Origin: an uncultured bacterium
Lineage (GTDB): Bacteria; Omnitrophota; Omnitrophia; Omnitrophales; Abzuiibacteriaceae
Length of the DNA: 64,000 nucleotides
Direction of reading: 5' to 3'
Assembly (NCBI GenBank): GCA_964387845.1
Contig: CAYLXA010000001.1
Coordinates: forward strand, 288,001-352,000
Shown here in pieces: positions 6,803-49,818 of the stretch. Within the stretch, counting starts at the first letter, position 1. The number at the start of each line of letters is the position of its first letter. The position numbers were made by a program, and so were the translations under genes. The notes under the pieces are model-generated. The model was given only the letters and a program-made list of their open reading frames with translations, had not been told where the DNA came from and made no database searches.

Positions 6803-6851
6803 AGCCGGTATTATAACACTTAAAAAAGCAAAAACCCTTGGCAATTTCTCG

Positions 6852-6968
6852 CCAAGGGTTTGTGAATCAAATGGAAAAACAGGGTCAGGTGCCAAGGGTC
6901 ATGGGTCAAGGCACAAATGAACGGTTACTCTTGCCTTGACCCTTGCTACTTGCCCCTTGACCCTAAGA
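6852..6968. repeat. cluster of CCTTGACCC / GGGTCAAGG palindromic units, including an 11-bp-stem hairpin (gggtcaaggca ... tgccttgaccc)
   Basis: ccaagggtc, gggtcaaggc and ccttgaccc (twice) are visible between the nrdJ stop and the SDR start. Confidence 0.4.
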
Positions 6969-10238: not shown

Positions 10239-10299
10239 TATGAATTCCTCCGTTATCGAATCCTTAAGCTACCTTACTAAGCCGCTTAGGAGCTTTATT

Positions 10300-10346
10300 G
10301 TAGCATATATAGTGTTCTTTTAGAACTTCTCTACCATATCTAGTGC
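10300..10346. promoter_or_regulatory. candidate tandem NrdR boxes in the nrdJ leader
   Basis: gtagcATATATAGTGTt (12/16 match to the NrdR consensus acaCwAtATaTwGtgt) and taCcATATcTAGTGcc (11/16). Their centres are about 31 bp apart, the spacing usually seen for NrdR operators. Confidence 0.3.
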
Positions 10347-10504
10347 CCGTAATGGACAATTCGGCACTCTTGGATTTTACTTAAGCTTATTTTTCTCCCT
10401 TTTTCGCTATCTGAATTAGTTGTTCTTTAGGCTAGATGTATTTGGACCTGGTTGACCCACAAAATTCACGATGGACTTTGTAAATAAACTGACAGGAAGT
10501 CAGG

Positions 10505-10551
10505 AAAAAAAACGACTGAACCGGGCTCTCTTTAAGAGCCTGGTTCAGTCG
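10505..10551 (-). terminator. rho-independent terminator of mnmE
   Basis: 17-bp stem cgactgaaccgggctct / agagcctggttcagtcg with one mismatch, followed on the minus strand by a U8 tract (A8 on the plus strand, 10505-10512). Confidence 0.7.
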
Positions 10552-10760
10552 CTTCATTTCACTGTTGGATGTTTCGAACAAGCATTAATTATGATTCCGT
10601 TACTTTCATCCGCGACTCTGCGATTTTGATCGCTCATCGCTTCCAATCGTTCATTGAATTTTTCATCAAAGAACTTTAACTGCCGAGTGAAGAGAATTTT
10701 ATGCGAGAAATAATTCAGTGTCAACAACAAAAATATTTTTTTTTAAAATCTCGCACAAAA

Positions 10761-12137: not shown

Positions 12138-12139
12138 AG

Positions 12140-12205
12140 TTTTAAGTCGTAAGTGGTAAGGGCTAAGTTATTCGATCGCTTAACACTTACCACTTATCAC
12201 TTATC
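12140..12205. repeat. GTAAGT-heptad hairpin element, copy 1 (family i)
   Basis: aagtcgtaagtggtaag ... cttaccacttatcactta: tandem (N)GTAAGT units followed by their inverted complement. It fills the whole mnmE-folC gap and overlaps the folC stop. Confidence 0.55.
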
Positions 12206-13529
12206 CCTTCTTCAATTGTTCGCTCGCTTCTGCGACAAGAAATAACGATCCGGTAATCACCGTGATTGCATTCCGGTCACTGAGCCGCTTTGAATATTCC
12301 AAGGCTTCTTTTATATTTTCAGCCGGGATCATCAAATCAAAATATGCTTTGCCGGCTTCCATCATGACTTTCAAATCCTGCGCTCTCGGCTGATCAGCTT
12401 TTGTGAGAATGACTAGCTGCGCAACACCGGCCAAAGCACCGAGCATTGATTTTAAATCTTTTTCCCGTGAGGCGCCAAAGATAACCTGGATTTTCTTTCT
12501 TGGCAATAAGCGCCTGATGTTTCGGGCTAATGCGCTCATGGAAGCATCGTTATGAGCGCCATCCAAGATAAACATGCGGCCCTTCTTATTAATCACTTCA
12601 AAACGGCCGGGCCATTTAGCCGATAAAAGACCTGTTTTTATCTGAGATTGGGATATTCCGAGACCCATTTGACGGTTTAAAACATGAATACCGGCTAAAG
12701 CCGTTGCAGCGTTTTCTGTTTGAATATCGCCGATCAAGTGTATTCGGCAACGTGCCAGCTTGATTTTCTTCATACTGAAATCAAACACAGAGCCATTAAT
12801 ATCCATCCGGCGAATTCGAGCTTGGAAATCCGTGCCCGAAAAGATACCCTTCACGCCAAGCGTGCGGCATCTTTTTTGAAGTACTGATTTTGCTTCAGAT
12901 GTTTGTTTCGACGATACAAACGGCGTGTTGCGCCGGATGATCATGGATTTGTCTTTCGCGATTTTGGCAATGGTGCTGCCCAGATGCTCCTGATGATCCA
13001 AACTGATCGGCATCATCACCGACAAATTCGGATGAACGATGGTCGTTGCGTCAAGCCGTCCGCCCATTCCGACCTCGAGAACCGCCCAATCAATTTTTTG
13101 CTCCGCAAAATATAAAAAAGCAATCAGTGTTGAAATTTCAAAAAATGTGATGGGTTCAAGCAATTTAATCTCGCGGCGTCTTTTCTCGATGGTCCTTTTT
13201 ACTTTCGATACCAGCTTCGCGAGTTCCGATTTTGATATCATTTTCCCGTTAACGCGGATCCGCTCGCGAAAATCAATCAAGTGCGGCGATGTGTACATCC
13301 CGGCTTTGAATCCGGCAGATTGGAGAATCGATTGAAAAAAGACAGCGGCCGAACCTTTTCCCTTTGTTCCGCCGATTAAAATGGACGGATACTTTTTCTC
13401 GGGATTGCCGAACCAGCGCGCAAGCACACGCATCCGCTCGATGTTGAGCTCGCGTTTGTATTCGAAATGCGACACTTTCTCGAGGTTAAAGAAGGAATAA
13501 AGATACTGAAGCGCCGAAGCGTAGGTCAT
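12201..13529 (-). CDS. folC: folylpolyglutamate synthase / dihydrofolate synthase
   Basis: Mur-ligase-family P-loop GTKGKGS with FolC-like N- and C-terminal domains. Confidence 0.85.
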   Translation of the reverse strand: MTYASALQYLYSFFNLEKVSHFEYKRELNIERMRVLARWFGNPEKKYPSILIGGTKGKGSAAVFFQSILQSAGFKAGMYTSPHLIDFRERIRVNGKMISKSELAKLVSKVKRTIEKRRREIKLLEPITFFEISTLIAFLYFAEQKIDWAVLEVGMGGRLDATTIVHPNLSVMMPISLDHQEHLGSTIAKIAKDKSMIIRRNTPFVSSKQTSEAKSVLQKRCRTLGVKGIFSGTDFQARIRRMDINGSVFDFSMKKIKLARCRIHLIGDIQTENAATALAGIHVLNRQMGLGISQSQIKTGLLSAKWPGRFEVINKKGRMFILDGAHNDASMSALARNIRRLLPRKKIQVIFGASREKDLKSMLGALAGVAQLVILTKADQPRAQDLKVMMEAGKAYFDLMIPAENIKEALEYSKRLSDRNAITVITGSLFLVAEASEQLKKG

Positions 13530-16030: not shown

Positions 16031-19000
16031 TTATGCGGAGTAGAAAACCTGCATTTGCGCGCGGAACTTGCCGACCAAATATGCCGCGGCTGATAATACA
16101 TGGTCCACAAACGCTTGGTTCCAGATTATGACCTTGTCTGCGATTTTTTCAAGAAATGGAACGGCAACCGCGTCATCTGAAACACCGATAATGGCCATGG
16201 AAAGACCGAGATTTCTAAGTTCGGCGCGCGCCTTGTGGTAATCCTCAACGGGAACAATCCTATTTTTTGGATTTGCAATGGTTGCATTAATCTCGTCGAT
16301 GACGCGAAGCTCTGCGCGGTTTGTCACGATCACCATGTAAGAACCGTAAACATCCGAAAGATTCCGGCCAACCACAGCCAGACTTCCCTTTTCGCCGAAG
16401 AAAGCGTTACGCGTAAACACTTTCCCTTCCCGCATCTCTGATCGATTTTGAAGTGCTGTAACAATCTGATTGTCAAAACTGCGAGCGTTTGACACAATCC
16501 GGCGCATTTCGCTTCTCGCTACCGGTGCAATCTCAGTTTGCAAATCTCGGAATAACGGATTTTCTTTGACTTCAACTCTTCCTTTAGCAATGGTTTTTTC
16601 AGTCTTTGCAATGACGCGGAAATTAAAAACTGTTTCACCCGAAACTTCGGACTGCACCTTGGCCATAATTAGCGGGAGCCCCAAAACTTCGCTTTGCACC
16701 TTGTCTCCGATTTCAGTATTATTGAAAGCATCTGCTTGATTTAGAATCGACTTTTCAATCGCGCTTTGAAAATCGATTGGTTTGATTTTTTGAAGGCTTT
16801 CCGGCAGCAATTCCTTGTTAATTTCGCCTTCCAAATGAATACTGACATCATAACGGCTTCCAATTGTCTTTTGAGCGATTGTAAAATTCCGGTGTTCGCT
16901 TGTTAGCGATTTGACGCCCGCCTGCTCATAAAATTGAGCATCAATAACGGGAACCTCGCGGTCTGCGATCTCTTCTAAAATCCGGACCGCGCGATGAATA
17001 TATTTAGCGTGCCGGAAACTTCTTCGCTCATTTTCGCTCAGAGTCAAACTCCTGTTTTTCATCTGCAATTCCGAATACCAGCGCCGGAATAACTTCATAA
17101 TTTGAATCAGCGAAAGCGGCTGGTTAGCGCCGAGCGGATTGGATGAATTTTGTTCGTAAATTCTATTAATATCTGTCTCGCTTTGAGCTGTCCAGCTTGA
17201 TTTTTCCTGATTTAAAACCGCTTTAAGTACCGGAATATAAAAACCTGTGTCACGCTCAATCCACCAATTAAGCACATAAAGAGCGGCGAAGCGCGCAGAT
17301 TGGCGCAGCATATCCGGATTAAAGTTTTTAGGCGCTACTTCAATGAGCGGTTTCCATTCATCAACCGGAATAACCGGTTCAGCTAAGTATTGAAGCAGTG
17401 TTTCGAGGCCAACCTCATTTCCTTTTCCAAGCTCATCGGCTCTTGTCTTCCGGATTGTAAAATTAGGATGCGACAAATTTCTAAGAAGTTTTTGCACCGA
17501 ACGCAGTTCTGATTTTTGGCTGCCGGCATCAGGCCCAGGCATCGGCTCTGTCAATTTTTGGAAACGTTCGGCCAATTCGGTTTCTGAGATTTTAAACATT
17601 TCGTCAACAAACGCTTCGGAACCGCCAAGCTCCCCTCCGTCTTCTCCGAATAAACGGACTTCGACTAACTCATGAAACGCAACGGCAAATCTTTCGGCCG
17701 ATATCCTTTCTTCATCCGTTTTGAATTCAAACTGAAAAGCGAGACGCGTATCCTTAACCGCTTCAAGCGTCATCAAGGCCATCGGATTATCCGCTTCGAT
17801 CCATTCAGCACTCCCTTTGTTCAGATTTTTGATCTTAACAGAAACATTTTTTGCTAGGGCGGCTTGCGCCATTTCGACAATGAACATCGCTGGACTCGCA
17901 TGGACACCTTGCCGGTTCTTGACCGTAACATTGATCTCAATGCTGTTACTTTCCCCTTCCCGCAATTCCGACATGTTTCTATCAGTCGGCGTTACGGACT
18001 TTTTATATTCATTAATCTGATGATCGAGAAAAGCTTCGTAACTATCAATGGCCTGGCTTGTTTGCGCCAACCACTCTTCTTCTTCTTTCAATAATAGGCC
18101 ATGTTCTTCTTTCATTCCCTTCAAAGCAGACTTTGCTTTTCGAAGCTCTGGTAATATTCTGAGATAATAATCGTTCGCTTCCGCGGCTAGAGAATTGCCT
18201 CGATCCGAAACTGACAAAATAAAGCTGCTGAAACGATTCAACAAAACTTCCGTGCGGCTCAATAAAATCTTAATTCTGAGCTGCTGTTCATCCAAAGCGA
18301 TTCGCCTCGGTTTGATAAGAGAATAATAAAGGAGCGCTCCGACTCCTATGCCTATCGCGCCCGCTGAAATACCGATAACGGTATAATTTCGTAATTCAGA
18401 ACGATGTTTAGGCGGACGGGGAAAACTTTGAAAAGGCCCCCTGCGCGCAGCGCGGACAGCCTGAATTCTCGCCGTCACTTCTTCAATAGTATCTAAGTCA
18501 CCGGCTAATTCTGCGTTATGAAGCTCGACTTCCAATCTTGCCAAATCCGTCGAGTGATGCGATTGGTCTACAGCAAACGGAAGCTCGATCGGCTCCTCAT
18601 TTTCCAAATCATTGCGCAGTTCCGAACGGACACCGGATTTTTCGCGAGGCGGCTGTTCAGATTTCGGCGGAACCGGGATCCATCCTTCCCACCGGCGGTA
18701 AACATGCGTAGGCCGCGTCCCTACTTCATTGGAAATATTTTTACCGCGCACGCCATGAACCTGATGGGCTTCATCACGCCGTAAAACTTCGGCTCTTTGT
18801 GCACGAAAATAATCATCCGTAAAATGAGTGATTTCGCCGGTTTTTAAGCCCGCGCGGCGCCAGTCAATGTGCCCTTCGGGATGAACAACACGCATATCTT
18901 TCTTCAGTACCTGCAAAGCTCCGGAAAATGCGGCGTGATTAAACAAAATAACTGTTTTCCCGCGATACTGCTCGTTCATGCGTTTCCAAAAAGCGGCGGC

Positions 19001-22000
19001 GCGGATGATTAAATGGGCAAAACTTTCGCCATGCTCAGGTTTCGCCAAAACACTCCACTTTTGATAACTTCGCGCGGCCTTGAATTGTTCCCGGCCAAAC
19101 TGCGCCTTAATTTGCTCATTGGTGAGCCCTTCCCATTCGCCTTGAAAAATTTCTTTTGTATCGGGATCAATCATCACTTTCAGTTCAATTCCTAATTTTT
19201 CACGTACCAACCGGATAAATGGTTCTGCCGTATCCCGCACACGCCCAAGCGGATTAATGATCACCACAAACTGATCCGGATTTGCTGTGATTTGGTCTTT
19301 AAACTTTTCAAATAATTTTTCAGCGTCAGCTTGCGCTTGCACGCGCCCTTTTGGCGTCAACTGCGCGCCTTCGTTATCCATACCGCTTCCCTGAAACCTC
19401 TTTCTCCCTGTTCTTAGCCCTTCCGCAATGATGTGAGTTTCTCCGTGGCGGATAACGTAAAGATCCAGATCAAGCGCCGGTGGGAAATAAGGCTCTTTAT
19501 AAAAAAGCTGCCCGGTCGATTGATTGACCCAAAAACCCATTTGTTGCAATGTTTCGGAAACATTTTTTCGCAATTCCACCCTCGCCTTCATTAATAAATC
19601 CGGCTGTATTGCACTGGTCGGAACCACAAGTTTGCCGTTTTCCCAATAGACCAGCGCACTCAAAAACTGGAACATGACCGGATCATGTTTTCTCACAAAA
19701 TCAGGGTCAAGCCAGTAAAGAGACTGGGCTTCAAAGAAAAACTCTCGCGCAGAAACAATGCTGTATCGGCTCAAAAACTGCGTTTCAATTTCTTCTTGAG
19801 AATAATCAAGCACCTGCTTCTTTTTCCCAAATTGCCTTTCAAGTGCCTGCAGCCTAGTCTCATAAATCCGTTTTGCAATCTGATAAACTGCTGTTTTATC
19901 GTGTGGAATGTTCACAATAGAGAGTGGTAAATTTTTATTCGCAAAATGCTCTAAGCGCTCAAAGTTAATCGGCAGCGCATACTGATTATGCTCAACGAGC
20001 GTTTCCGCAAGTTCGTGAGTCAGGAGCCGTTCTAAATAAGTAAAGTCCTTATCCCTCACCTTCAAAAATTCATCGCTCACTGGCCCGTCATAGGAGATCG
20101 GATGATCGCCCGCATAAAGTGAAAGAAAGATCGATTTAACATTGGACAGCACAGGATGAAGGGAGTGATAGGTAACGCCTCCCAAATGATCTCCGTTGCG
20201 TCTTACGATAGAACGCGCAATAAATACTTGGGCATTGAGCATTTTAAAAAGCGGTGCAATTGCAATGCCGGCCCTATGGCTTTCAAGGAAATGATTGAGC
20301 TGGCCATATAACTTACGCGCTAATCTCCAGTCGGTTTCACTGTTTAATCCATGCAATACATCAGTCCGAATATGTGCAGAAGAGCCTTGTAGATAACCCA
20401 AAACAATTTGACGCAATTCCGCCCTTGCCCCCTTTGAAGAAACATTTTCATGATCCGCTGGGGCCGAGGGGCTTTCTTGTAGTTCTTGCAAAATTAATAT
20501 CACTTCGTCCGGAAGTCCTAATGCGCTTAAAGCATCCTTGGCGCTTTCGAGCTGATGAAAACTGAAATGATCCGCAAATCTTTCTGCGCGAGACTTATTT
20601 CCCAGCAACCCTGTCAAAAATGGGATAGCCAACTCACGAAAATGAATGCACCATGGCTCCGCTTGAAGAATCCGGTTGGTCAGATAAAGCAGTTTTTTAA
20701 GCTGTTTAAACGATAAATCGCTATCTTGAAGCGCGGCACGGATTGCGTCATGGCCTGCATCCAACAACATAGTCTTAGGGGCAGCACTTTCCGCTTCGGA
20801 ATTCCTGAGCTCGGAACGTATGGCTCTAGATTTAATAGCAACGCTGCCGAGATACACATTGCCGCTCTGGTGATAAAGAAGCGGGTTTTCGTGGCCATCC
20901 ATGCTGATAACGTCTCCATCCGCGATATCACGGCCGGCGATGAGCCAAAGATGCTTTTCCGGCTGGAACACCATGTCCGGAACGCCATAAACGGCCGAAA
21001 TGCCTTCTTTCTGCGCCAGCGTTTCCGCATGCACTGAAATGGTCTTCGCTAAAATATGAACCCCTTTTGGAATCCGGTTAATCATTTCGGGATTCACTCT
21101 GTCCAAGATCAAAATAACGCCGTCAACATCCGCTCGGGGATGAGAAACAAGTTCGCCCAAAAGCTTTTCCGCTGCTTCTATCGAATTAGCCGCCAAACCG
21201 CGAATCGCACCGCCGCTCACGCCATGGCCGCGCGCAATCGGCTGATTGTCAGTCGAGTCGGCAAATTCCGGATATTGATCCGTCACAAAATCATCATTGC
21301 TTTGGACAATCCATATCTTTCCGCGCTCAATCGTGAATTCAAACTGCTGGTTGTAACGGAAAATGTTCTTGAGCTTACGCGCGTACTCGAACACTTGTGC
21401 GTAAAGCTCCGGCTGCAATGCTTCAAATGTTTGTTCATCCGGCCGGATTCGCTCACCATTTCCGATTAAAATGTAATTTTGGCCGGCACGGCTCATCAAT
21501 TGATCGCCGATCGAGTGAAACCGAAATTTACCTTGGAGCACGTCATGGCCGTCCGGAAGTGTTCTCAAAACTGCGTGCCCCGCGCCTGAAATTTTCCCGT
21601 CATCAGTCGGCTTTAAATTTCCGAAAACGCCTTTCTGCAGAATAACGACCGTTCCCCACTCTTGCGAAATCTGATGCCGTGTACGATACGCGCGTGCCTC
21701 TTCGGAGTCCCACGATGCATAAACCGCTTCGACTGCCATCATGACCTGATCCATCATGTCGTTTGGAATTATTTTGCCGTGCCGCGCCACGATTGCTTTG
21801 CACTGTTCCACCACTGCCTTCATGCCGTCTGCCGACAAATCTTCCTTTTCTTTAACATTCAAAACCTGCTCAAATTCCGCCTCAGGAATACCGAGCACAT
21901 TGATCGAAAATGACCGGATAAATTCCGCGTAGGTGTCATACGCAAACCACGCATCGCCGCTTTTTTGGGCAAGCGCTTCGGCTTCCGCGTCGTTCATGCC

Positions 22001-25000
22001 CACATTCGACACAGTAGCCAAAAGGCCGGGCAGCATGAAAGCAGAACCGCTTCGCGCGTACAAAATAAGCTTGAGGTCGGGATACTCGGAGTAGCGTTTG
22101 AGCCGTTCGATTTCGGCTGCGATTTTTTGACGGAATTCGTCCGACCTGAAAATGTCGGGTTTCGTCACTAACTTGGCGCTCAAGATGACACCCGGCGGTA
22201 CGGGAATCCTCTCGTGCGTCATGCGGATCAAGTTCAGGCCCTTTTTGCTCCAAAGCGAGAGAAGTTCCGGCCGTTCATCCGTTTCATTTTCGCCAAACCG
22301 GTACAAATGTTGCTCGAAATCATCCGGCCTTTCCGCGCCGGCATCCTCACGGATGGCTTCGTCCTGGCCTTGCGAAAGCGCAGAAGCGAGAACAGCATCA
22401 AATTTCATGAGCGCGCGGTCAAATGCCGTCGCGCCGGAATTCCGGATCAGCTCATCAATCACCGCGGCTTCAAGTCTCTCTTTTCCTTCAGGCGGAAAGT
22501 CATAAATTTGATAAGTCTGATCATCCTCTGTTTTGGTTTTGATTTTAAAGAGGCTGGTATGTTCGCGCCATAATTTTGCCAGATCGTGATAACCAACTTC
22601 ATCCAAGCTGTATTGCATGGCCGCGCGCATGGTGTTATTTAGTTGCCGGGTAATTTTGTGGACTTCGGCCTCAAGCGTGTGGACCAAATCGTAGAGCTGC
22701 GACGCCTTAATGCTGCCCGAATCAAGCTCAACCATCAATTGATCAAAATCGACACCACCCAGCCCTGAAGCCTGAATAAACCGGCCGAGCGCAATGAGAT
22801 TGGGCAATTCGCGCCGCAAATCGTCTACAGAATTTATTTTTTCAATCTTTTCCTGGACGTGAGCAATCTTTTCCGAAGCTAAAATCGATAATTTCTCGCT
22901 CATTTCAACCAACGTGCGTAAATCATATAGATAATCACCTTCTTCATGCATATCGTTCCACTCCTGGTCTATATCATCCGCATCCTCATCGGCCGAATCT
23001 TCGCCGTCCCGCCCAATGCTCTTCTCTGCCTGTCCCAATACTTTTTTCTGATTTTCCTCTCCGGAAAGCAAAAACTCTTTAAGATCATTTTGCACTTTCA
23101 CGATGGCGGAGAAAATGGCCGCATGATCATCAGAATCGATCAACATAAGCAGCCGATCGTAATCCTCCCGCATAAACCGGGTAATGGCCGTCATTTTCTT
23201 TTTCAAGTACCCACCGTCACGCAGATCTTCAGTTTCTCCTTTTAAGAAAGGAACGATCGTCGCGACGCGAGTTCCGAAATGATCCGCAAAAGCCAAATAA
23301 AGTTGAGTCATTAATTGAACGCGTTCATAGTCAATCTCGGACACATCTTCATCCCGGTTCGCTTCTTCATAAATCGCGACTACTTCACGCTCCGGAATGT
23401 CCAGGATTTCATCCAGAAAAGCCTCCGGATCGCTTTTGCTGATTTTCCCTTTGGCCGCAAGCGCTTTGACAAAACGGTTCAAGAGTTTTGAATAAGTTTG
23501 AAGAGTCGCTGGATTGAAATCTTTTGTCATATCATCCCGCAGCAGAGTCCAGTTGCTTTCCTTTAAAATAGACTCATCAAGCGTCAACCAATAAGCAAGA
23601 ACTCTTCTCGTATTCTCAAAGTCACTTCTATTCAAGTTTCGATGAATACCGTCTCTAAAATGGCTGAACCATCCGCGGCCAAACTCGCCGGGATAAGAGG
23701 CATTATTATCAAGCCGTCTTGAATAGCTGATAATACGGTCCTGCGAATTATCCGTAGAGACGCCGCCCTTGCGTTCGGCTTCGATGACTTTCATTAAATA
23801 AAAATAGGCCGCTCGGGCGTTTGGTTGATGGAGCAAATACAAGGACATCTGCGGATACTCTATGCGCTTTCTGCCTTCGCTTGGAATATCACGCACAAGG
23901 CCTTGGGCTGCCACAAAAGCAGCGGCAAGCGGATCCGCCGGTGAAACGCTCAGCAAGATAGAAATCAGTTCCCTGAAAAATTCGTGGCCTATGGTTCGGA
24001 GGTGCAGCAGAAGGTGAATCAGTTTACCCAAGTCGTCAGGACTTGCTTGGCGGAAAGTTGCTTCTAAATCATGGTGGATATCAGCTTTGATGTAATGCTC
24101 ATTAAAGTAAGCGGCTGCCAACTCAAGAAAAATCCGGTTCTCTTCCGGCGAATTTGTTTTAGAGAGGTAAATCGGAATCAAATGCTCTTTAAAGAAAGCA
24201 TCCGTCATTCTATAGCGGTCGGGCGACATCGCGCTCGACACGTACCACAAGTAGCTCTGTTTCTTATCCAGCGGTAAATCTGCTTTTAAAATAAACTCGC
24301 GAATCAAATTCTGCAGATGCTCTTTAGAATTTTTTTTAAGTAGGTCGATAATCGCCTCTTTCCTCGCCCCGACGGCTTGATTTTGCTCAAACGACAGGTG
24401 CTTGCCGCCTCTTCCAAAACTTAGTTTCATGAGTGTTTGGTAATCGCGCAGCGCTTTTTCGAATTCTTTATAAGACATTGGGTTTGTACGACCGTCCGAC
24501 CTGAGCTCGGAACGTTTTTGGGCAGTAAGTGTTTTTAAATTCGGAAAAAGTGTGCGGAACGGTTCGCCGAAAAAGAGGCGGCGTCGGACAGCCTCTTTGC
24601 GGCGATGAATAAATGCGGCTTGAGTCGGAAAAATAAGATGCCTCGGCAGAGGAGCGTATTTTAAATAAACAGGAGCTGATGTATTGATACCAACATTTAA
24701 TTCCGGGTCTTGCAAATTCGGCAGCGGAAGCGTGAGCACCGCATCCCGCAGAGGATTTTTACTGCGGTCACCGATTGTGCGAATCAGCATGCTGGCTTGA
24801 ACCTCGCTTACATCCCACGGTGAACGGAATCCCAGCCGAACCCAGTCAGATTCATTACGCGATAAAACTTCCGCGACCAGTTTTTCTATTTTTTCATTCG
24901 AAATTTTTCGGCCCGTTTCAACACCGTTCTGATCCAGTTCGGGAACATCGGTCAGCATCCGGCTTAGATATTCCGTCATGGATTGTTTTCCGGTGCGGCG

Positions 25001-28000
25001 TTTTGTATCGTCCGGCCAAAATCTGGCGCCATACTTCAGTGAGAATATTTTTACGCCCAGATCTGTGGATCTGTAACCAAACTTCCAATCATGAACGTCT
25101 TGATCCAGCATGACCGATAAGGCCCATAGCATCAAATTTCGATACGTGAAACCCGGATAAGACTGCGAGAATTTTCGTGTAGACGGCGGTATATCGGCCA
25201 AACGTTCTTCGGGCCATGCCGATACAACACTAATGAACCGCTTGACATAATCGGCCAGCAGCTCGTTGTCCGAGGGTTTCTTGATTTCTTTCCCGTCAAA
25301 TTCCTCAATATGAAGACCGGTCGGACGCAGATGTATGACTTGCGTCAAGCCCAATGTCCAGTAAGCGTAAAATAAATCCTCTAAACCACCCGCAAGCAGA
25401 TGATCCAGACGGCCTGCAAATTTTTCAAATTCGTCCAGGTCTTTGAAATAGGGATCGATTAACGTTGCCAAAAATTGGTTGAGGTTGCCGAATTTCTTGT
25501 CAAGGCCCCGGTTTTCCCATTCCCGGCGCAATTCGACGCCGAGCTCGCGTAATTCCCTATTCGAAAATCCTTCGGGCAATACCTTGCTCCAATAAATGCG
25601 CCTGTCCTCTGAGCCGCTTCTGGGCCAAAACCGATTGGAGTCGTGCGGGCTCAATAGAAACGTCAGAGCTTCAAGGATATCGCCTTCCGTCAGACTGTCA
25701 TAAATCTTATTCGGAGAGCCCGCTTGATCCATCAAATCGCGAATCACATCCATAACTTGATCGACTTTTGAACGTTGGGTGACCGCGGCAGTTTGCCTAA
25801 GTTCCGAACGGTTTTTCAGAATTTGCCGCCGTTCTTCGAGCGTAAAAAATTGTTTTTCGTAAGCTCTTTTTGCGGCTTCCCGGATTTTTCTATTAAACCG
25901 GTCTAAATCAGTTATTTCCTTCTTTAAAAAATCAAGCCACTGTTTTGGTTCAATGGTCATTTCCCCGAAAAATTCGTCGCTCAAAAGCATCAACAGCTGC
26001 ACAAATGCGACTTTGTACAAAGGATCTTCCTGATCCAAGGCAGCCCGCATCGCATCTGATACCGGAAGTACCGGATTCAGATAAGGGAACAGGATTTGAG
26101 CCGGATAGGACGACCGGATTAATTCATTCAATTTAGCTTCTACTTCAAAGTAAGCATGGGCCAACAACCCCTGCTGATCGCCTTCATACCCGCCCAGCGC
26201 ATGAGCCAGCAAACTTCCGGGACGCAGGATAGCTTTCATCACATTAATCCAATAGAGCGATGTTGAGTAATCGTTTTCTCCCTTATAAAATTCGTTTGCA
26301 AACACATAGGCATCGGAATGGCTAAGTTCCTCCTCTAAAACTCCGCTCCGGTATAATTGTGCGACATACCCATAATCGCCCAAACTATAAAAATGCATTT
26401 GAATCCAATCTCGTAAGTAAGCGACGGGTGATTGATCAAAATTGGGAAATTGATACTGGCCCGTTTCATATAACTTTTTCAAATTTTGGTAATAATCAAA
26501 ATTTTCTATCGAAGGAACGTCGGTGCCTTCAATAATGACAATATGCCTGTCTTTCGCAAATGCACTTAGGTAACTGTCGCTCTTTCCGTCTCTCGATTTG
26601 AGGCGAACGGTGTAAACCGGAACAAACCGGCCTGCCGCAGAGCGCTGAGATTCCCTTTTGATAATTTTACCGACCAAGAGTCCGCTGCCGTTCACTATGT
26701 CCACGATCAGGCCACGTGGAATTAAAATATCGTCCGCGATTTTTGTTCCTATTTTTCCGATATCATAAATAGAAATCAAATCTTTGTGGCCAAATGAAAA
26801 AGCGGCATCAAAATCCGGTGAAAGAGGCCTGAGAACCTGGTTGAATGTTTCAACGGCCTCAAGACGGTTTAAGTCATTTAGACTGGCTTTTTCGACTAGG
26901 TACTTTAGCTTCGGCCAATAGCTCACCCAAAACCATTCCACAACATCAAAGCTGGGGCTATCCGGATTTAGGAGCCTAAACTCTCTGATTAAGTTGAGAA
27001 TTTGATTCGCCTGGCTGGTGTTGAGCGTGATCTTTCCGCGCAAAGCTTTGATAATGCCTTGCGCATTTAAATTTTGAGTTTCCAAAAATTCTTTCAGAAC
27101 ATCTACGGTAAAAAAGCGTTTAATATTTTTTACGCTTAATTTCGAAATGATGAGAGCATGCAGCGTTTGAACCGGATCCGTATTTACTGCTTGTGCCGTC
27201 TGATTGCGCAATTCAGAGCGGAGTAGCTCAGACTGCGGGGCAGCGGTTTGACCTTGCAACGGGATTTCCCAGAAATTGCGGGCGTTGCGGGCAGAATCGA
27301 AGAATGCTCTGGCTTTCGCACGGTTGCCTTTGGTTAACTCGAATAATCCAAAAATAATTGCGTAAGCTCTTTCCGTAAAGCTACGCGACTTTTTTAGCAC
27401 AAAGTCACGGGCCAGCCACCGGTAACGGAATGCGTCAAAATGATACTGAAAACCGGCTTCCGGATCGTGAATCTTTTTAATTGTATTGCGCGAGGCTCCC
27501 TGAGAGTAGTGCTGATCTAAATAATCGCGGCCGTAGTTGGTAATCCCTGCATAGATCTTCTTAAAGCCCGAACGCCGCGCGACATCTTGAAGAATCTGAA
27601 TCGCTTCCGGCATCAGTTCATCGAAATATTTTGCACCGTCATTGTTAAACTCGAAACTGTTGACCGTTAGTACCGGATCTCCATTGTCTTCCGATGCAAT
27701 CATCCACATCTGTGCCCGATGCTGATAGGCATCGCCTGAACCCTTGTGATCGATGTCCGCCAGGATAATTCCGTCGTCACTCAGGAGAGAGGGCAAAATC
27801 CAGGAGACAAAATGCTGCAGAGAAATACAATTTCCGATGGCTTCACTTGAAGTGAGAAAATCTATCGCGCCTTTCAGGGTCTTTTTGTCGTGAATTCTTA
27901 TTCGAATTCCCTTTTCTTTATTTTCGTAAACCCTGCCCTTCTCAAATTCAGAAACATTGATGCCGATTGCCTGCATTTTTTTCTCAATGGCTGAAACATG

Positions 28001-31000
28001 GCCTGTTTTGCGAAGTCTTTCTGACAAATAATCACGCAATCTTTTGTAATACAAAATTCCGGGCGCAATATTGAGCCGCGTGCTGATCAAAAAAGTTCCT
28101 GGCGCGATAATTCCCATCAAAATAAAAAACAAGGCAGCATTTGAAATGAGAGGATAAATGGTAAAAACGCCGAACCCGACCAGAAACGCGAAAGCGGTCG
28201 GCGCCACCCAAGCATAAATGGGCCTTGGCGGCTTTCTAAGGCCTTTCAAAATGCGTGGATTCATCGTGACAATGTCGAGAGCATCTGCAATGCTGATCCC
28301 GAGTGCGCGCCGCACTTTGGCAATTTCGGAAATTTTCATGCGGCTCAGGCGCGTGGCTTTCATAAATTTCTGAACCGCCATGAGTTTGTCAAAAGCGTCT
28401 TTTTTAAGACTGTCCCGCACCGCTTTGTCTTCGGAAAGCCTGCGCATAGCTTCTTGATTTGAGGCTGACCAGACTACGGCAATAACTTCTTCCGTTTTTT
28501 TCCGCTGGTCAGGCGAAAGTTTATCCAAAAACTTAAGCACATTGACGAGATCGCCGTCTTTAACGGACACGTTGTACAGAATTTCTTCAAAAAAGTACCG
28601 CAAATTCCGGTTTGGACTTGGAAAATATTCGAGCAACTTTTCAAGTTTCGCGATTGCGCGCGGAGGATAGCTCATTTTCTGCGCAACGGGATTTTCATTA
28701 ATTTCAGCGAGAATGGTTTCGATAAATTTTGGATATGCGCGGAGCTCGGATCGCTGCTCATCGGTTTTTTTTGCGATTGCCCTCCTTTCAGACTTATGCT
28801 GAAACCACCACATTCCTCCAAAAAGAAGCAGAAGCGGCGGGATCAAGGAAGCATTGTCCGTAAGCCAGGCAACGGGCCCGGTCACAACAAGAACAAGCGA
28901 GGCTGTAATTGCCTTAAGAAAATATTGTTTCCGGAACTTAAACCACCACGTTTTATACTGAGTCGGAAAAATCTTAACGCGGTTCGATGGTTGAATTAAA
29001 TCCGTTACATAACCAATCACTTCACCTTTTGGGAAAGCATACTCCAAAGGCTCGACCGGATACCCATAAACGTCTAAATATTGTTTTTGGGAAGGATCGG
29101 CATATTCGATCGATACAAGCTCGGGCTGTTTGCCGGATTTCTTAACATAATCGACAAGCCTCTTAGGCCCTTGATTGAGCGGATAAGCAAAATAAAGAAC
29201 TGATTTAAATCCGCATGCCCGGGCATAGTTCTCGATGATTTTTTGAATTCCCTTCGCCTTTGCATCAAAAATTCGCCCCTCCACACCGTCCACAAATAAA
29301 ATCGGCTGTTCTTTTCCGTCTTGATCCTTATAAATCGCGGCGGCGATTCTGGCCCGTACCCGGCGGCCTTCGCGCGTACGGAAATCAATCGCTGAAATAC
29401 TTTTGTTGTGCAAATAATTAAACGGGCCCAGCGCACCTTTTGTTCTCCGGTTTAATTTGTCAAGCCACGTGTTGCCGCGAAGCGACGCCGAAGAAAAGAA
29501 ATCCTTTTGATTGGTTAAATCAAACCACGGATCGCGCCGCCAAATCCGGGCTTCTACAATTGAGTCCGGTAAATTTCCCCAATCGTCAATCTTGGAGATA
29601 CTTTTCTGAAGGTATTGATTGGCCTTCGCGGCATTGGGGTTTACATATTGGCCCAGCTCTTGCAGCAACTTTTTTCCTTCCTCGACAGGCAATTCACCTC
29701 TTTTATTCCTGGCCAATTCTTCTTTGTGCGCATTGAAAAATTGAGTGACCGACTTCTTACCCTCCTTTAAATTGGGCGTGTACTGTCCGGGCTTAAACTG
29801 GCGGTCTTCGGTTGAACCCAAAAAATCCCTGAGTATTTTCTGGATAAACTCGGGGATGGTTTGATTTTCCGCGTCTTCGAATTCCCCTGCCGGTACTTTT
29901 TCAATATTATCCCCGCGAATTTGATAATAGACTTTGTAATCCGGATTATCCCAATTTTCGTTGATGCCGACCGATTTGAGACGCTCCATGGTTTGAATCG
30001 CTGCCTCGGTCTGGTCAAACCATTGCCGGTAACTTCGCCGCTTAAGCATGGAGGCCAGATCCAACGCGGAAATTGTTTTCCACGAAAAAATGAACATTCG
30101 TTTCGCAAATACCGCCAAAATGTAAACCAAGGCTGTGAAACCTGACGCCACAAACAAGCTTTCAATCCATCCTGCGGGATCAGAATTGTTGATCATTTCC
30201 CTAATATTTAAGCTTGCTAAATTTCCATCCATCCAAAAAGAAATAGCGGAATAGAAAATTGTGAGCGCTGCGCGTTGAACCGAAGCATAGAAATATCCAA
30301 TAACGCCAGTGAAGGAAACCGCGAGAAGATGCAGCCACGGGTTCTGAATGAGCGCCGTACGGGCGTGCGCAATCCGTGCGCGTTCTAATTTTTCTTCGTT
30401 AATTTTGTTCAAGTCAATCTTTAAACTTTTAAACTTTTTCCACAAAAATTTCAGCTCCGGGAAACCGTCTTTCTCCATCCGCTCGTCGATTTCGGCAATG
30501 GTGAGATCTGAATTCTCACGCAGTTCACTGGCTGCCTTTGGATTTTTGCTTTTTCCGTTTCCGGAAAAAGCGTTGCGCGTCAGAACACCGATCGTTTTAA
30601 ACACCAGCGCGGTGTTATAAAGTGCCGACCGGTCCCGGATATCGTTTAACTCCAGCTCTATGTCATGCGTGTCCATGCCAAACTTTCCGGTTCCGATACC
30701 CCGCTTTAGAGCGCTTGAGCTGAGAAAACCCGGCTTGGTGTGATGTAAAACACTTTCGATATAATTTTGATCAACTTCCAAAGGTAAGCGCGGCCTTGGC
30801 CCAAACCATTGCATGTCACCGCGGACAATCGACAAGAGCTGCGGAAGCTCATCAAGCCCCGTTCTGCGCAAAAACCATTCGTAAGGCGTAATGCTTTCAT
30901 CTGAAATGTTGAAATCAAGTTTCATGGTTTTAATTTTTCGTATCACAATCGTCTTGCCCTGAAAACCGATTCGCTCTTGAATAAAAAACATGGGGCCGCT

Positions 31001-34084: not shown

Positions 34085-35578
34085 TTATCTGTTGGAAAGG
34101 GCTTCGACAAGCGCTTTTCCCTTGTGAAGCGTCTCTTGATACTCTGCGGCGGGTTTTGAATCATGCACAATACCGGCGCCGACTTGGAAGTAACCCTTTT
34201 GCTGATTAATCACGATTGTGCGGATCACAATGTTGAGATCCAGATCACCATCAAAACCAAAATAGCCAATGGAGCCGGTATAAATCCCGCGTTTGAAAGG
34301 TTCCAGCTCTTCGATAATTTCCATACAGCGAATCTTTGGGCATCCCGTGATAGTTCCGCCCGGGAACATCGCGCGTACCAAATCAAATTGATCCGCATCA
34401 TCACGAAGCTCGCCCTTTACGTTTGAGACAATGTGCACAACGTGTGAATATTCCTCAAGCGCCATCATCTCGCTCACGCGCACCGTGTGCGGCTTGCACA
34501 CGCGCCCCAAATCATTGCGTTCCAGATCTACTAGCATAATGTGCTCGGCGCGCTCTTTATCATTTGAGATAAGTTCACTGCGCAGTTTCTGATTTTGCAC
34601 TGCCGTTTTCCCGCGCGGCCGGGTCCCTGCAATCGGGCGCGTTTCGCACGCACTTCCCCGCTTTTTGATGAGGCGCTCCGGCGAAGAGCTAATCACCTGC
34701 AAATCGCCGAGACGAAAGAAACTGGAAAAAGGTGACGGATTGATATCCCGCAAACGTTCATAGAGTTTCTCAGAACTTCCTGAGAAATCAAACGAGAACC
34801 GCTGTGAAAGATTGGCTTGATAAATATCGCCTGCCTCTATGTAATCTTTGCCTTTTTTGACAATCGCTTCGAATTTTGATTTTTGAATATCAGATTTAAA
34901 ATTCTGAATTTGTATTTGTCCATTTTGATAAAGCGTTTGATTGAGTTTCGAGAGAGTCTCTTGAATCCAATTTTGACTTTCACTTAGCTGATCCTCAAAA
35001 CTCTTTCTCTCGGAAGGCATTAAATTGCTGATGAGATAAATCGCTTTCTTTGATTCATCGTAAGCGATCAAATTTCGGATGAATAGGAAAACAGCTTCAT
35101 CCAGTTTTTGGTCATTCTTCGCCCGGTTGGGCAGGCGTTCAAAATCCCACGCCAAATCATAGGAAAAATAACCAACCGCGCCGCCTAAAAATTCAGGGCC
35201 GGCGTTCCATTTTCTTCCGCGATAAGTTTTAAAGAGCTTGCGCATTTCCAGAAGAAAATCACCGCGTTTTTTTACGACCCTCACCCTGCCCTCTCCCTCA
35301 GGGAGAGGGAAACGCGAAGCGTGGGTGAGGGATTTTTCGATCGAAATATTTTTACCCTGCTTTCGCAAGATTAAAAACGGGTCGCTGGCCATATAGGAAA
35401 ATGTACCGGTTTTCTGGTGAAAGCGCGCGCTATCCAGGATAAACGAATTTTCGGAAGACTGGATCCTGCGGAAAGTTTCCCAGGAACTCAACGAAGCGGG
35501 GATTTTTTGGATCAGCGGAACAATGAAGCCTTTTTGGAAATATTTTCGAAGTGTCGTGATGGGCAGAACGTTATTCAT
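34085..35578 (-). CDS. pabB: chorismate-binding enzyme, aminodeoxychorismate synthase component I (PabB) / anthranilate synthase component I family
   Basis: C-terminal chorismate-binding signature (PIAGTRPRG...ERAEHIMLVDLERNDLGRV...GGTITGCPK). Assigned PabB-like because pabC-like and folC genes are nearby and no trpG/trpD is present. Confidence 0.65.
   Translation of the reverse strand: MNNVLPITTLRKYFQKGFIVPLIQKIPASLSSWETFRRIQSSENSFILDSARFHQKTGTFSYMASDPFLILRKQGKNISIEKSLTHASRFPLPEGEGRVRVVKKRGDFLLEMRKLFKTYRGRKWNAGPEFLGGAVGYFSYDLAWDFERLPNRAKNDQKLDEAVFLFIRNLIAYDESKKAIYLISNLMPSERKSFEDQLSESQNWIQETLSKLNQTLYQNGQIQIQNFKSDIQKSKFEAIVKKGKDYIEAGDIYQANLSQRFSFDFSGSSEKLYERLRDINPSPFSSFFRLGDLQVISSSPERLIKKRGSACETRPIAGTRPRGKTAVQNQKLRSELISNDKERAEHIMLVDLERNDLGRVCKPHTVRVSEMMALEEYSHVVHIVSNVKGELRDDADQFDLVRAMFPGGTITGCPKIRCMEIIEELEPFKRGIYTGSIGYFGFDGDLDLNIVIRTIVINQQKGYFQVGAGIVHDSKPAAEYQETLHKGKALVEALSNR
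35278..35331. repeat. family ii nested palindromic element, copy B, inside the pabB-like coding frame
   Basis: ccctcaccctgccctctccctcagggagagggaaacgcgaagcgtgggtgaggg. It is translated in frame as FPLPEGEGRVRVV near aa 85-100. Confidence 0.5.
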
Positions 35579-36887
35579 GCCGGTACATCAAAAACCCTGA
35601 GCCCAACTTCGGGTAAAAATAAGTAGACTTTTGCGGCATCAATTCTCCCGAAGCGCAAATAGCCTGCATCACTTTGGCTTCAATCGGCGGCACAATCACA
35701 GCCGCGTCAAACTTCTTGGAGCGTACGCCTTCGAGTGCCTCATCCGAAAAGCGCGTGTATTCGAGAAAATGCTCGAGATTTTTATCATCAACACCAAGAT
35801 GTTTCAAAACCAAATGTGAAACCTGCGCGACTTCAAGCCGGTACCAAATGTCGGGTTTTCCGGCCGGCATCTCCGCGCGTGCTTTTTGAATGTCTTTGAT
35901 TTTAAATAAAATCGATTCACCGGGAAAACAAACCGCGAAAGCGTCCCTGATTTTTCCCTGCGCGAGTTCTTTTACTTCCGTCTCGGAAATTTTTCTCGAG
36001 TCAAATAAGGGCGAAAGGATTTGCGACAATTCTGACGCGCTTACTTTTTTGATGTTCTTGAGCTGCCGATGGATGGGAAAAATTAAAAGCCCTTCATCTT
36101 CCAATTCCACAAGCCCCATTAAGCAATAATCGGAAGGCTGCAAGCTGCCAGCTTCAGGCTTCAAGCTTGAAGTTTGCAATTTGGAGCCTGCAGCTTGAAG
36201 CTTGCGGCTTGCGGCTTGTTCTTGGCTATAGCGCAAAGCGGTTTCATAACGGTGATGGCCATCCGCGATTAAAACCTGCTTATCGGAAAACATTTTTGAA
36301 ATCTGCGTTTTGTCGGATGAATCCGAAACCGCCCAAAGTTTGTGCGCTTCACCGTCAGAAAATTTAAATTCGTATAACGGTTTTTGTTTCTCAAATTTCT
36401 TTCTCAGTTCCTGGGCGGTTCTTTCAGAATCTTGATAAAGCCCATAAACCGGCGAAATGTTGGTTTTGATTGCTGAGAGCAGCTTGAACCGATCTTCCTT
36501 CGGGCCGGAATGCGTTTTTTCGTGCGGCAAAATCACTTTTGATTCAAAAGGCTCCACTTGAAACAGACCAAAAATCACGACGCGCGTCTTGATGCGGCCC
36601 GATTCTGGGTCTTTGAAGATGGTTTCGTAAAGATAAAAACTCTCTTTTGTGTCTTTTTCGAGAATTTGCTTCCTCAGCCATTCGTTCAGAAATTCAGAAG
36701 CTTTTTGATATTTCACACTCGCATCTTCTTTACCGTATTCGATACGAATGATGTTGTAGGGACTTTTACCGTAAAGCGCTTCCTGCTCGGCAGGTGAAAT
36801 AATATCGTAAGGCGGAGCAACCACTTGATCCATTTTGACGGACCCGGAATTGTAACGCAGTGCGCGGAAAGGTTTGATAATAGCCAT
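35571..36887 (-). CDS. DUF1015-family protein
   Basis: Conserved PHEKTHSGP and ADGHHRYETA motifs. Contains a low-complexity palindromic insert at 36136-36212. Confidence 0.55.
   Translation of the reverse strand: MAIIKPFRALRYNSGSVKMDQVVAPPYDIISPAEQEALYGKSPYNIIRIEYGKEDASVKYQKASEFLNEWLRKQILEKDTKESFYLYETIFKDPESGRIKTRVVIFGLFQVEPFESKVILPHEKTHSGPKEDRFKLLSAIKTNISPVYGLYQDSERTAQELRKKFEKQKPLYEFKFSDGEAHKLWAVSDSSDKTQISKMFSDKQVLIADGHHRYETALRYSQEQAASRKLQAAGSKLQTSSLKPEAGSLQPSDYCLMGLVELEDEGLLIFPIHRQLKNIKKVSASELSQILSPLFDSRKISETEVKELAQGKIRDAFAVCFPGESILFKIKDIQKARAEMPAGKPDIWYRLEVAQVSHLVLKHLGVDDKNLEHFLEYTRFSDEALEGVRSKKFDAAVIVPPIEAKVMQAICASGELMPQKSTYFYPKLGSGFLMYRHE
36136..36212. repeat. palindromic low-complexity insert (GCTTCAAGCTTGAAGC and similar) inside the DUF1015 coding frame
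   Basis: gctgcaagctgccagcttcaggcttcaagcttgaagtttgcaatttggagcctgcagcttgaagcttgcggcttgcggcttg, translated in frame as KLQAAGSKLQTSSLKPEAGSLQ. Confidence 0.45.
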
Positions 36888-36976
36888 ATTAACGTAAATT
36901 CAAATCTCAAATTTCAAAATAATTTTGATATTTGAAATTTGAATTTGTTTTGAGATTTGATATTTGAATTTTGAAA
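36888..36976. repeat. AT-rich array of ATTTGAAAT / TTTCAAAT direct and inverted repeats
   Basis: aaatctcaaatttcaaaataattttgatatttgaaatttgaatttgttttgagatttgatatttgaattttgaaatt. The region fills the gap between the tRNA-binding-protein stop and the DUF1015 start. Confidence 0.45.
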
Positions 36977-37321
36977 TTACTTAACAATTGCTCCAGACGG
37001 TAAATCTTTTTCGGGAGTTAGAAATGCGAGACTTGAATCCGTGCTTGCGGCCAGCAGCATGCCTTGTGATTCAACGCCGCGGATCACGGCCGGAGCCAGA
37101 TTTTTCACCACCACGATTTTTTTACCGACCAGCTCTTCAGGTTTATAGAATTGTTTAATACCGGCCACGATGGTCCGTTGCTCATCGGCAATCTTAATCC
37201 TCAAAACCCACAAACGGTCGGCGTTGGGATGCGGCTCCACTGCCAGGATTTCGGCCACCCGCAGCTCCAGCTTCTTAAAATCATCGTATGTAATGGTTTC
37301 AGTCGTCATTTGAGCCGCCAT
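36977..37321 (-). CDS. tRNA-binding (EMAP/Trbp111/CsaA-type OB-fold) domain protein
   Basis: MAAQMTTETITYDDFKKLELRVAEILAVEPHPNADRLWVLRIKIADEQRTIVAGI...NLAPAVIRGVESQGMLLAAS. Start set at internal ATG 37321; the longer N-terminal extension crosses repeat DNA. Confidence 0.65.
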   Translation of the reverse strand: MAAQMTTETITYDDFKKLELRVAEILAVEPHPNADRLWVLRIKIADEQRTIVAGIKQFYKPEELVGKKIVVVKNLAPAVIRGVESQGMLLAASTDSSLAFLTPEKDLPSGAIVK

Positions 37322-39097: not shown

Positions 39098-39175
39098 CCC
39101 GTCATTGCGAGGCGCTTAAATTGTCGCCGAAGCAATCTACGTTTTAAGCTTTGAAGAAGCCCTTCGCTCAGTGAA
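39098..39175. repeat. family iv element (CCGTCATTGCGAGGCGC ... CGCCGAAGCAATCT), copy 1
   Basis: ccgtcattgcgaggcgcttaaattgtcgccgaagcaatctacgtt closely matches the reverse complement of 46660-46703. Confidence 0.5.
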
Positions 39176-39917: not shown

Positions 39918-40070
39918 GAAACACCCCTCTTATTGGTTTTAAATGGAGGGGGGATTTTAATTTTGTTTTTTACTGCGGGAGATATGGAATTATATATAAC
40001 TTTTACGATTAATCAACACTCAACTTCTAGCCTGTCCCCTTAGAAGGTGCCTGGCACTTTTTTTATGAGA

Positions 40071-46021: not shown

Positions 46022-46029
46022 TTTTTATC

Positions 46030-46703: not shown

Positions 46704-46711
46704 TATTTGCA

Positions 46712-49815: not shown

Positions 49816-49818
49816 TTT

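Follow-up and report, generated by a model that had tools for sequence, protein, structure and literature searches.

Hairpins of heptanucleotide repeats at three gene junctions of an Omnitrophota genome

The stretch of DNA described here, termed the window, comprises 64,000 nt of contig CAYLXA010000001.1 (assembly GCA_964387845.1, positions 288,001 to 352,000) from an uncultured bacterium of the phylum Omnitrophota. It carries three hairpin elements, family i, that are built from 7-nt units and lie at 12138-12206, 46022-46110 and 49816-49909. Coordinates are positions in the window, and gene sense is the minus strand at all three sites. Together with 10 kb from beyond the window start (locus L246), about 74 kb of DNA from the same genome were read.

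The three hairpins and the genes they separate

Site 1 lies between folC and mnmE, site 2 between the gamma carbonic anhydrase (gamma-CA) gene and sucC, and site 3 between mdh and sdhC. All six genes are on the minus strand, and the NCBIfam names of their products (MnmE, FolC, SucC, gamma carbonic anhydrase, SdhC of the b558 family and Mdh) agree with the gene pairs given in the initial annotation of this DNA. The intergenic gaps measure 63, 83 and 86 nt at sites 1, 2 and 3, respectively, and each is wholly taken up by the element. The layout is the same in all three copies and consists of successive NRTAAGT heptads, a loop and then ACTTAYN heptads in inverted orientation. The parts are as follows, with arm sequences in gene sense.

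12138-12206, minus strand: copy 1, between folC and mnmE, recognised by sequence and RNA fold
12176-12206, minus strand: copy 1 5' arm, GATAAGT GATAAGT GGTAAGT GTTAAGC
Between the arms, minus strand: copy 1 loop, which includes ATCGAATAACTTA
12140-12170, minus strand: copy 1 3' arm, CCCTTAC CACTTAC GACTTAA
12201-12203, minus strand: folC stop TAA, furnished by the first heptad of copy 1 (GGA TAA GTG ATA AGT)
46022-46104, minus strand: copy 2 insertion of 83 nt, from the gamma-CA stop to the sucC start
Copy 2 5' arm: C ATAGT GGTAAGT GATAAGT TATAAGT GGTAAGT, followed by a loop with AATTGAATAACTTA
Copy 2 3' arm: AAACTTA TCACTTA CAACTTA ACACTGG, followed by the A-rich tail ATAAAAA
46105-46116, minus strand: native 3' end of the gamma-CA gene, GTA AGT TTG TAA, with the stop at 46105-46107
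49816-49901, minus strand: copy 3 insertion of 86 nt, from the mdh stop to the sdhC start
Copy 3 5' arm: GT CGTAAGT GATAAGT GGTAAGT, followed by a 27-nt loop that holds an additional ACTTACC
Copy 3 3' arm: AACTTAC GACTTAC CACTTAC AACTTAC GACTG, followed by AAAA
49902-49907, minus strand: native mdh end TTG TAA, with the stop at 49902-49904; it joins the inserted GT to make the first heptad, TTGTAAGT

The motif GTAAGTNGTAAGT, with at most one mismatch, has 13 matches in the window and all of them (13/13) are within family i, where shuffled sequences give an expectation of 0.07. A three-heptad pattern is matched seven times against none expected. Tandem Repeats Finder (TRF) detects period-7 arrays on both arms of every copy, with 3.7-5 units per arm. 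In a lag scan of the window, period 7 is the sole enriched short period (13 segments); the other lags between 4 and 13 give three segments at most, and lag 14, a multiple of 7, gives nine. Sequence, motif count and TRF thus bear out the three elements first annotated at 12140-12205, 46030-46120 and 49819-49908. An element is indeed present at site 2, but its extent needs correction, as 46105-46120 represents the last codons of the gamma-CA gene (GTAAGTT TGTAA), which are heptad-like and lie outside the inserted DNA.

When folded, each copy forms a long imperfect hairpin on either strand, as the initial annotation had supposed. Free energies range from -23 to -43 kcal/mol and z-scores from -4.0 to -8.3, and no shuffled sequence folds as stably (0/200). 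The values for the individual copies are -26.1 kcal/mol (z -5.5) for copy 1, -26.6 kcal/mol (z -4.0) for copy 2 and -37.3 kcal/mol (z -8.0) for copy 3.

An assembly artefact is rejected because copies 1 and 3 recur unchanged in a Logan assembly made independently from run SRR15237813. One Logan contig (L001, SRR15237813_18720) stops precisely at the edge of copy 3, as is expected for a repeat. Short-read contigs stop exactly at the edges of intergenic hairpins in several cases (the end of L001 and the starts of L124 and L125), and mis-joins are possible there. Readings of family i as a CRISPR array, a riboswitch or a small RNA are ruled out by the 7-nt units, the lack of spacers and the absence of the elements from relatives.

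The elements are closely tied to the ends of the adjoining reading frames. The upstream stop codon is within the first heptad in copies 1 and 3 and directly before the element in copy 2, so that all three window copies (3/3) overlap or adjoin it; that the element fills the gap and overlaps this stop had been recognised at the outset. Stop and start codons stand at the two feet of the stem. NRTAAGT contains TAA, and because 7 and 3 have no common factor, a series of three heptads provides stops in all three frames; arrays of ACTTACN are open in all frames. The last bases before the ATG are A-rich (AAAACT, ATAAAAA and GAAAA) and arrived with the element.

Empty sites in relatives and the descent of the copies

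Orthologous junctions were compared in loci from related genomes: L122 and L250 (run SRR18669184; SucC 96% identical to that of the window), L251 (from ENA; Mdh 88%), L123 and L248 (JGI Ga0268299_1000725; SucC 87%, FolC 62%) and L247 (run SRR18669186; FolC 74%). SucC, FolC and Mdh have their best named homologues, about 45-82% identical, in metagenome-assembled genomes (MAGs) of Candidatus Omnitrophica/Omnitrophota, and the proteins of the window are also found on an NCBI contig of 409 kb.

None of the three sites is occupied in relatives, which is the presence/absence polymorphism at orthologous sites that is typical of MITEs (miniature inverted-repeat transposable elements). At site 1, folC and mnmE overlap by ATGA in L247 and L248, and the relatives' folC ends at the TGA of this overlap. 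In the window the 63-nt element parts the two genes and the TAA of its first heptad serves as the folC stop, with the C-terminal length of FolC about unchanged. At site 2, the gamma-CA gene and sucC overlap by ATGA in L122 and L251 and are 1 nt apart in L123 (TTGTAAT ATG); the window has 83 additional bases between TTGTAA and ATG. At site 3, mdh and sdhC are 3 nt apart in L250 (TTGTAA TTT ATG) and 1 nt apart in L251, and the window has 86 additional bases between them. In L123 the mdh/sdhC junction is occupied by a hairpin repeat unrelated to family i, GTCATTGCGAG...CTCGCAATGAC, in place of copy 3.

Each copy is a recent, lineage-specific insertion of 63-86 nt exactly between a stop and a start codon. 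Close relatives lack the elements and have genes that overlap or abut at these sites, so the copies represent recent insertions and not conserved regulatory signals. The invaded junctions, with genes that overlapped or were 1-3 nt apart before insertion, look translationally coupled. This empty-site comparison is the new part of the result and supplies three datable insertions at stop/start junctions.

The gene ends at two of the sites resembled the heptad before insertion. TTGTAA is ancestral at sites 2 and 3, being present in the gamma-CA gene of L123 (CTG AGT TTG TAA) and in mdh of L250. Of the 34 window genes, the only two with a TTGTAA end are those that carry copies 2 and 3 of family i (Fisher P = 0.005). 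At site 2, a Leu-to-Val codon change (CTG to GTA) makes a perfect extra GTAAGT inside the gamma-CA gene, beside the element.

Judged by their sequences, the three copies derive from a common source and constitute one dispersed family, because heptad order and loop sequence are shared. They align over their full length with a mean column identity of 67%, in keeping with the repeated family first proposed, and are oriented alike relative to the genes. An irregular order of heptad variants is common to the copies (GATAAGTGGTAAGT on the 5' arm and CACTTACAACTTA on the 3' arm), and copies 1 and 2 have the non-heptad loop ATYGAATAACTTA in common. Slippage of a local seed is disfavoured because it would yield identical units and unrelated loops. 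Over 24 heptads, the TAAGT core is changed at 2 of 120 positions and heptad positions 1-2 at 21 of 48 (Fisher P = 1e-11); mismatches in the stem are confined to these two free positions.

Heptad hairpins elsewhere in the genome and in public data

Family i exemplifies a general phenomenon of heptad hairpins, found in this genome and in many phyla, that the initial annotation missed. The same genome has at least five further heptad hairpins with other units, giving about eight in 74 kb vs two in 65 kb of relatives. All of the intergenic heptad hairpins with an upstream stop that were examined begin 0-5 nt from that stop (5/5). The other hairpins, and a terminator adjoining one of them, are:

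6884-6964, minus strand: heptad hairpin GGGTCAA/CCTTGAC, which begins 5 nt past the ribonucleotide reductase stop
6828-6861, minus strand: canonical terminator AAACCCTTGG...CCAAGGGTTTTTGC, downstream of the 6884-6964 hairpin and conserved in L248
L246:20718-20806: second hairpin of GGGTCAA units, which begins right after a TAA stop
36890-36980, minus strand: heptad hairpin AATTCAA/TTTGAAT, which fills the gap between the tRNA-binding-domain and DUF1015 genes, from the TAA stop
36133-36227, minus strand: heptad hairpin CAAGCYN/GAAGCTN, inside the DUF1015 gene (open reading frame 35571-36887) and in frame
L246:16244-16349: heptad hairpin NATAGCG, from the TAG stop of a deaminase-fusion gene to the ATG of a SpoU methylase gene

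The stem of the 6828-6861 terminator (AAACCCTTGG...CCAAGGGTTTTT) has the 7-mers CAAGGGT and ACCCTTG; the terminator offers a contrast to family i and is a possible seed of the adjoining hairpin. In L248 (16720-16860) the terminator is present without the heptad hairpin, and a repeat of the GTCATCCCCGC...GCGGGAATGAC type is found instead. The window, L123 and L122 all have an AT-rich hairpin in the orthologous gap between the tRNA-binding-domain and DUF1015 genes, with units that differ and both arms changed together: AATTCAA/TTTGAAT in the window, AAAGTTA/TTTAACT at L123:18778-18853 and a CGAAA-rich palindrome at L122:7478-7585. The hairpin inside the DUF1015 gene adds 23 low-complexity residues (AASRKLQAAGSKLQTSSLKPEAGSLQP) to the protein; it is present in the window and in L123 (87% relative) and absent from L122 (96% relative).

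A second hairpin family, unrelated to the first, is found at other junctions. It has the form GTCATTGCGAG...GAAGCAATC...GATTGCTTCG...CTCGCAATGAC and lies at 46616-46701 and 39101-39140 of the window, at L122:70-165 and at L123:6205-6295. At the sdhB/gamma-CA junction of the window and of L122, its terminal CTCGCAATGAC gives the ATG start of the gamma-CA gene.

In public data, the three-heptad pattern has at least 120 matches in GTDB genomes from more than 10 phyla. Among the matches listed, about 45 are from Bacteroidota and about 30 from Cyanobacteria by a rough hand tally of record titles, with Patescibacteria, Acidobacteriota and Omnitrophota among the others; about 13 of the matches are hairpins, and most consist of plain arrays. 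Among the metagenomic hairpins listed (122), 52 have co-directional flanking genes, 12 have convergent and 8 have divergent ones. In 48 co-directional cases among these, the upstream stop lies at a median distance of 4 nt and the downstream start at one of 15 nt. The stop is within 12 nt in 32/48 and the start in 8/48 (sign test P = 0.008), counts in which a few loci duplicate one gut contig and negative distances are inflated, as open reading frames (ORFs) that read into the TAA-bearing arm must stop there. A T-tract is found on one side of 32% of the 117 metagenomic GTAAGT-type hairpins listed, vs about 14% expected. The family-specific loop GAATAACTTA, sought in about 250 other fetched loci, gave no match, so that common descent of the metagenomic GTAAGT hairpins with family i is not demonstrable. 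In IMG/VR the hairpin pattern matches only nine viral stretches, and carriage by phages is unsupported.

Possible origin and role of family i, and other features of the window

The initial annotation had compared the hairpins with repetitive extragenic palindromic (REP) elements and had suggested that they probably act as terminators or mRNA-stabilising structures and possibly carry the promoter of the downstream gene. Neither the terminator nor the promoter role is upheld. There is no U-tract after the stem at any of the three copies (the tails are AAAACUAUG, GGAUAAAAAAUG and GAAAAAUG), and a terminator scan gives no match at any of them. Intrinsic terminators have a G+C-rich stem and a U-tract, whereas the stems of family i are AT-rich and the tails A-rich; canonical stem-plus-T-run terminators are found elsewhere in the genome, at 10513-10551 and 6828-6861 (the latter seen by reading the sequence). 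A scan for sigma-70-like promoters finds no site at copies 2 and 3, and at copy 1 there is one 9/12 match, at chance frequency, whose -10 box overlaps the mnmE start codon. The likeness to REP elements is a fair analogy where extragenic palindromes at gene 3' ends are concerned, but it does not extend to a terminator role. An Rfam search of the whole window at the gathering threshold gives no matches, and an E-value search of 45950-50000 gives only sub-threshold matches to eukaryotic microRNA-precursor hairpin models.

With confidence somewhat above even, family i is read here as a small non-coding mobile palindrome of heptanucleotide repeats, similar to REPINs and MITEs, that has spread by insertion in this genome. 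It works like these elements, yet does not fit cleanly into any single family. REP elements are extragenic imperfect palindromes at gene 3' ends within transcription units, the REPIN is an inverted doublet that forms one long hairpin, and REP elements stabilise upstream mRNA (PMC3116915, PMC2817692, PMC12306157). About half of the E. coli REPs are near enough to a stop codon to stall ribosomes. Family i likewise consists of extragenic imperfect stem-loops at gene 3' ends in transcription units. It is unlike REP and REPIN sequences in that its arms are heptad arrays and no RAYT gene was found among the genes of the 74 kb. Instead of a 20-40 nt unit with a GTAG/CGTC head there are stem-loops of 63-90 nt with no such head at either foot, as judged by eye. 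REP elements number about 100 or more per genome; the 74 kb hold three copies of family i and eight heptad hairpins in all.

MITEs that insert near or into genes include Correia/NEMIS and the Rickettsia palindromic elements (reviewed in PMC2229807). As with MITEs, family i is small, non-autonomous and hairpin-forming, its whole arms are inverted repeats, and it is present or absent between relatives. MITEs may also provide a stop or start codon or go in without breaking the frame, and the hairpin in the DUF1015 gene does the latter. Unlike MITEs, it has an internal 7-nt tandem repeat and no demonstrable target-site duplication, and no insertion sequence is found in the 74 kb. In IS608, which transposes as a single strand (IS200/IS605), the tetranucleotide target TTAC is chosen by base pairing (PMC5934647, PMC3201880). 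Points in common would be insertion beside a short specific target that pairs with the element, the lack of a clear target duplication and a reliance on hairpins, and each ACTTACN has TTAC, with GTAA in its complement. Family i differs in having neither a tnpA gene in the 74 kb nor any subterminal-hairpin-plus-guide anatomy; the IS608/TTAC mechanism was set aside, since the junction geometry does not fit, and is kept as a lead.

Heptanucleotide repeats themselves are known from several bacteria. They are the most over-represented class of long simple sequence repeats (LSSRs) in bacteria, with slippage as the proposed cause, in the account of Mrazek 2007 given in PMC4679880. In Xanthomonas there are 70-75 convergent pairs of GGGAATC heptamer arrays per genome, and these are capable of forming stem-loops (Rehm et al. 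2015, PMC4692102). Family i resembles such arrays, and heptanucleotide LSSRs in general, in its tandem intergenic 7-nt units, in length and sequence that vary widely between relatives, and in having no known function. It has at least three head-to-tail intergenic units by TRF and lag scan, as do LSSRs and short tandemly repeated repetitive (STRR) sequences; the near-identical units that slippage would leave are not seen, as positions 1-2 differ. In contrast to the Xanthomonas arrays, the NRTAAGT unit is AT-rich, lacks G-quadruplex potential and has two free positions, the copies share loops and unit order, the insertions are at stop/start junctions and the host is an Omnitrophota-like MAG. In Beggiatoaceae, Cyanobacteria and Bacteroidetes, direct repeats of the heptamer TAACTGA adjoin start codons (MacGregor 2015, PMC4679880). 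Contigs often break in these arrays, which are absent from close relatives with shorter intergenic regions (PMC4679880). Both are heptamer arrays in intergenic DNA, lie within a few nucleotides of a start codon, are missing from close relatives and break contigs, and the taxon spread of the GTAAGT pattern is roughly similar; the TAACTGA repeats are direct, form no hairpin (one indirect repeat is noted) and are linked to starts, whereas family i forms hairpins and is linked to stops.

If family i is such a mobile palindrome, insertion might be guided by short stretches at gene ends that match the heptad, a suggestion based on the native TTGTAA at two sites. The targeting agent could be a target-pairing single-strand transposase of the IS608 kind or template switching driven by microhomology. 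Copies would survive because the element ends the upstream frame and keeps the start codon, leaving both reading frames intact. The fold would hold stop and start adjacent and may preserve the coupling of termination to reinitiation. On the polycistronic mRNA, the stem-loop might act in a REP-like manner, as a barrier to 3'-exonucleases or a brake on the terminating ribosome (PMC12306157, which cites Liang et al. 2015), and as neither a transcription terminator nor a promoter.

Several points weigh against this reading. No transposase or RAYT (Y1 HUH) gene is found among the genes of the window or of the 10 kb beyond it, and only three copies of family i are seen in the 74 kb. The TTGTAA association is post hoc and comes from two genes only, and a TetR gene that ends in TCG TAA GT (L246:14250) is without an element. 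Target-site duplication is unclear: sites 1 and 2 are compatible with a 2-nt AT, and site 3, where TTT has been replaced, shows none. The stop/start junction is the only viable insertion point between adjacent genes, and selection alone could explain the placement. In a covariation analysis, which has no power with three sequences, three compensated pairs and several broken ones were seen. The REP-like effect on RNA is inferred by analogy.

A rather unlikely alternative is that nothing moves and that the hairpins originated locally from similar seeds, by growth of a native 7-mer at the stop through 7-nt slippage and subsequent palindromisation by template switching. The prevalence of heptanucleotide LSSRs, for which slippage has been proposed, is consistent with this, as is the native TTGTAA already present at two of the sites; site 1, however, is without such a seed. 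Different gaps also hold different units, the CAAGGGT hairpin adjoins a conserved terminator whose stem has CAAGGGT and ACCCTTG, and the NATAGCG hairpin begins on a native TAG-CG. Slippage from one seed nevertheless predicts identical units, whereas in family i positions 1-2 vary, the irregular order recurs across copies and the non-heptad loop is the same in copies 1 and 2; moreover, the insertions are whole, and the sampled relatives have no short intermediate array.

It is quite improbable that family i is a functional RNA signal, be it an intrinsic terminator or attenuator, a selected mRNA-stabilising stem or a carrier of the downstream promoter. Stable hairpins placed right after stops, as REP elements and terminators are, would suit such a role, and the excess of T-tracts beside the metagenomic hairpins points the same way. 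The copies themselves, however, have no U-tract or terminator match and a sole, chance-level promoter match at copy 1, and the genome has ordinary terminators elsewhere. Termination within folC-mnmE, mdh-sdhCAB and gCA-sucCD would cut off essential downstream genes, and these operons work without the elements, because the sites are empty and the genes overlap in close relatives. That absence also argues against a protein-binding array, likewise a very doubtful reading, in which TAAGT/ACUUA cores in 7-nt register would bind a single-strand nucleic-acid-binding protein (cold-shock-domain, S1 or CsrA-type) and tune translation at the junction. The invariant core with two free positions and the restriction of stem mismatches to the latter are what such binding would produce, and a similar hypothesis has a precedent in the TAACTGA heptamers upstream of starts in Beggiatoaceae (PMC4679880). 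The same pattern is expected, however, if selection or a mobilising enzyme needs 5-bp helical segments; the quite different units in the same genome would demand many binding proteins, and no candidate gene is linked to the elements.

There is also a slim chance that a 7-nt-register mobilisation or synthesis system, hitherto unrecognised, is at work, with an enzyme that would read TAAGT/ACTTA, skip two positions and pair with heptad-like targets at stop codons (TTGTAA). Such a system would explain heptamer arrays and hairpins of many units beside stops across Bacteroidota, Cyanobacteria, Omnitrophota and other phyla; the over-representation of heptamers has been without an explanation since 2007.

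The reading of family i as a mobile palindrome, if it holds, would make these sites a natural experiment, in which a hairpin of 60-90 nt has been placed three times in tight operon junctions of central metabolism (ATGA-type overlaps) with the operons not destroyed. The element would have an "insertion-safe" design, with stops in all frames, stop and start at the stem foot, and an A-rich leader, and a design of this kind could account for the colonisation of compact genomes by palindromic repeats. It would also provide a means of testing translational coupling where the spacer is structured. The elements join two separate literatures, on heptanucleotide repeats and on REP/MITE-like mobile hairpins, and present a concrete, datable case for the question of why bacterial repeats come in sevens, with sites empty in relatives of 87% and 96% SucC identity. 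On the practical side, short-read assemblies break at such elements, which also give rise to spurious ORF extensions in MAGs. The gamma-CA gene, called at 181 amino acids (aa) vs 171 aa in relatives, is an example of ORF extension.

The window has other features of note. A single ORF of 5975 aa occupies 16031-33958 on the minus strand, and relatives have giant genes at the same place (more than 3804 aa in L248); an ORF of this size would be in keeping with the phylum Omnitrophota. Between the inositol-phosphate synthase and arginase genes are genes for an ORF6N-domain protein and a HEPN AbiU2-like protein (39378-39917 and 40071-40739, respectively). The stretch from 39378 to 40739 varies between relatives and resembles a small defence or mobile islet. 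The ribonucleotide reductase gene is preceded by a 522-nt non-coding leader (10239-10760), with a strong terminator after mnmE at 10513-10551. The leader has an 11/12 sigma-70-like promoter at 10724-10696 and no Rfam match, and its ACACTATATATGCTACAAT motif recalls an NrdR box.

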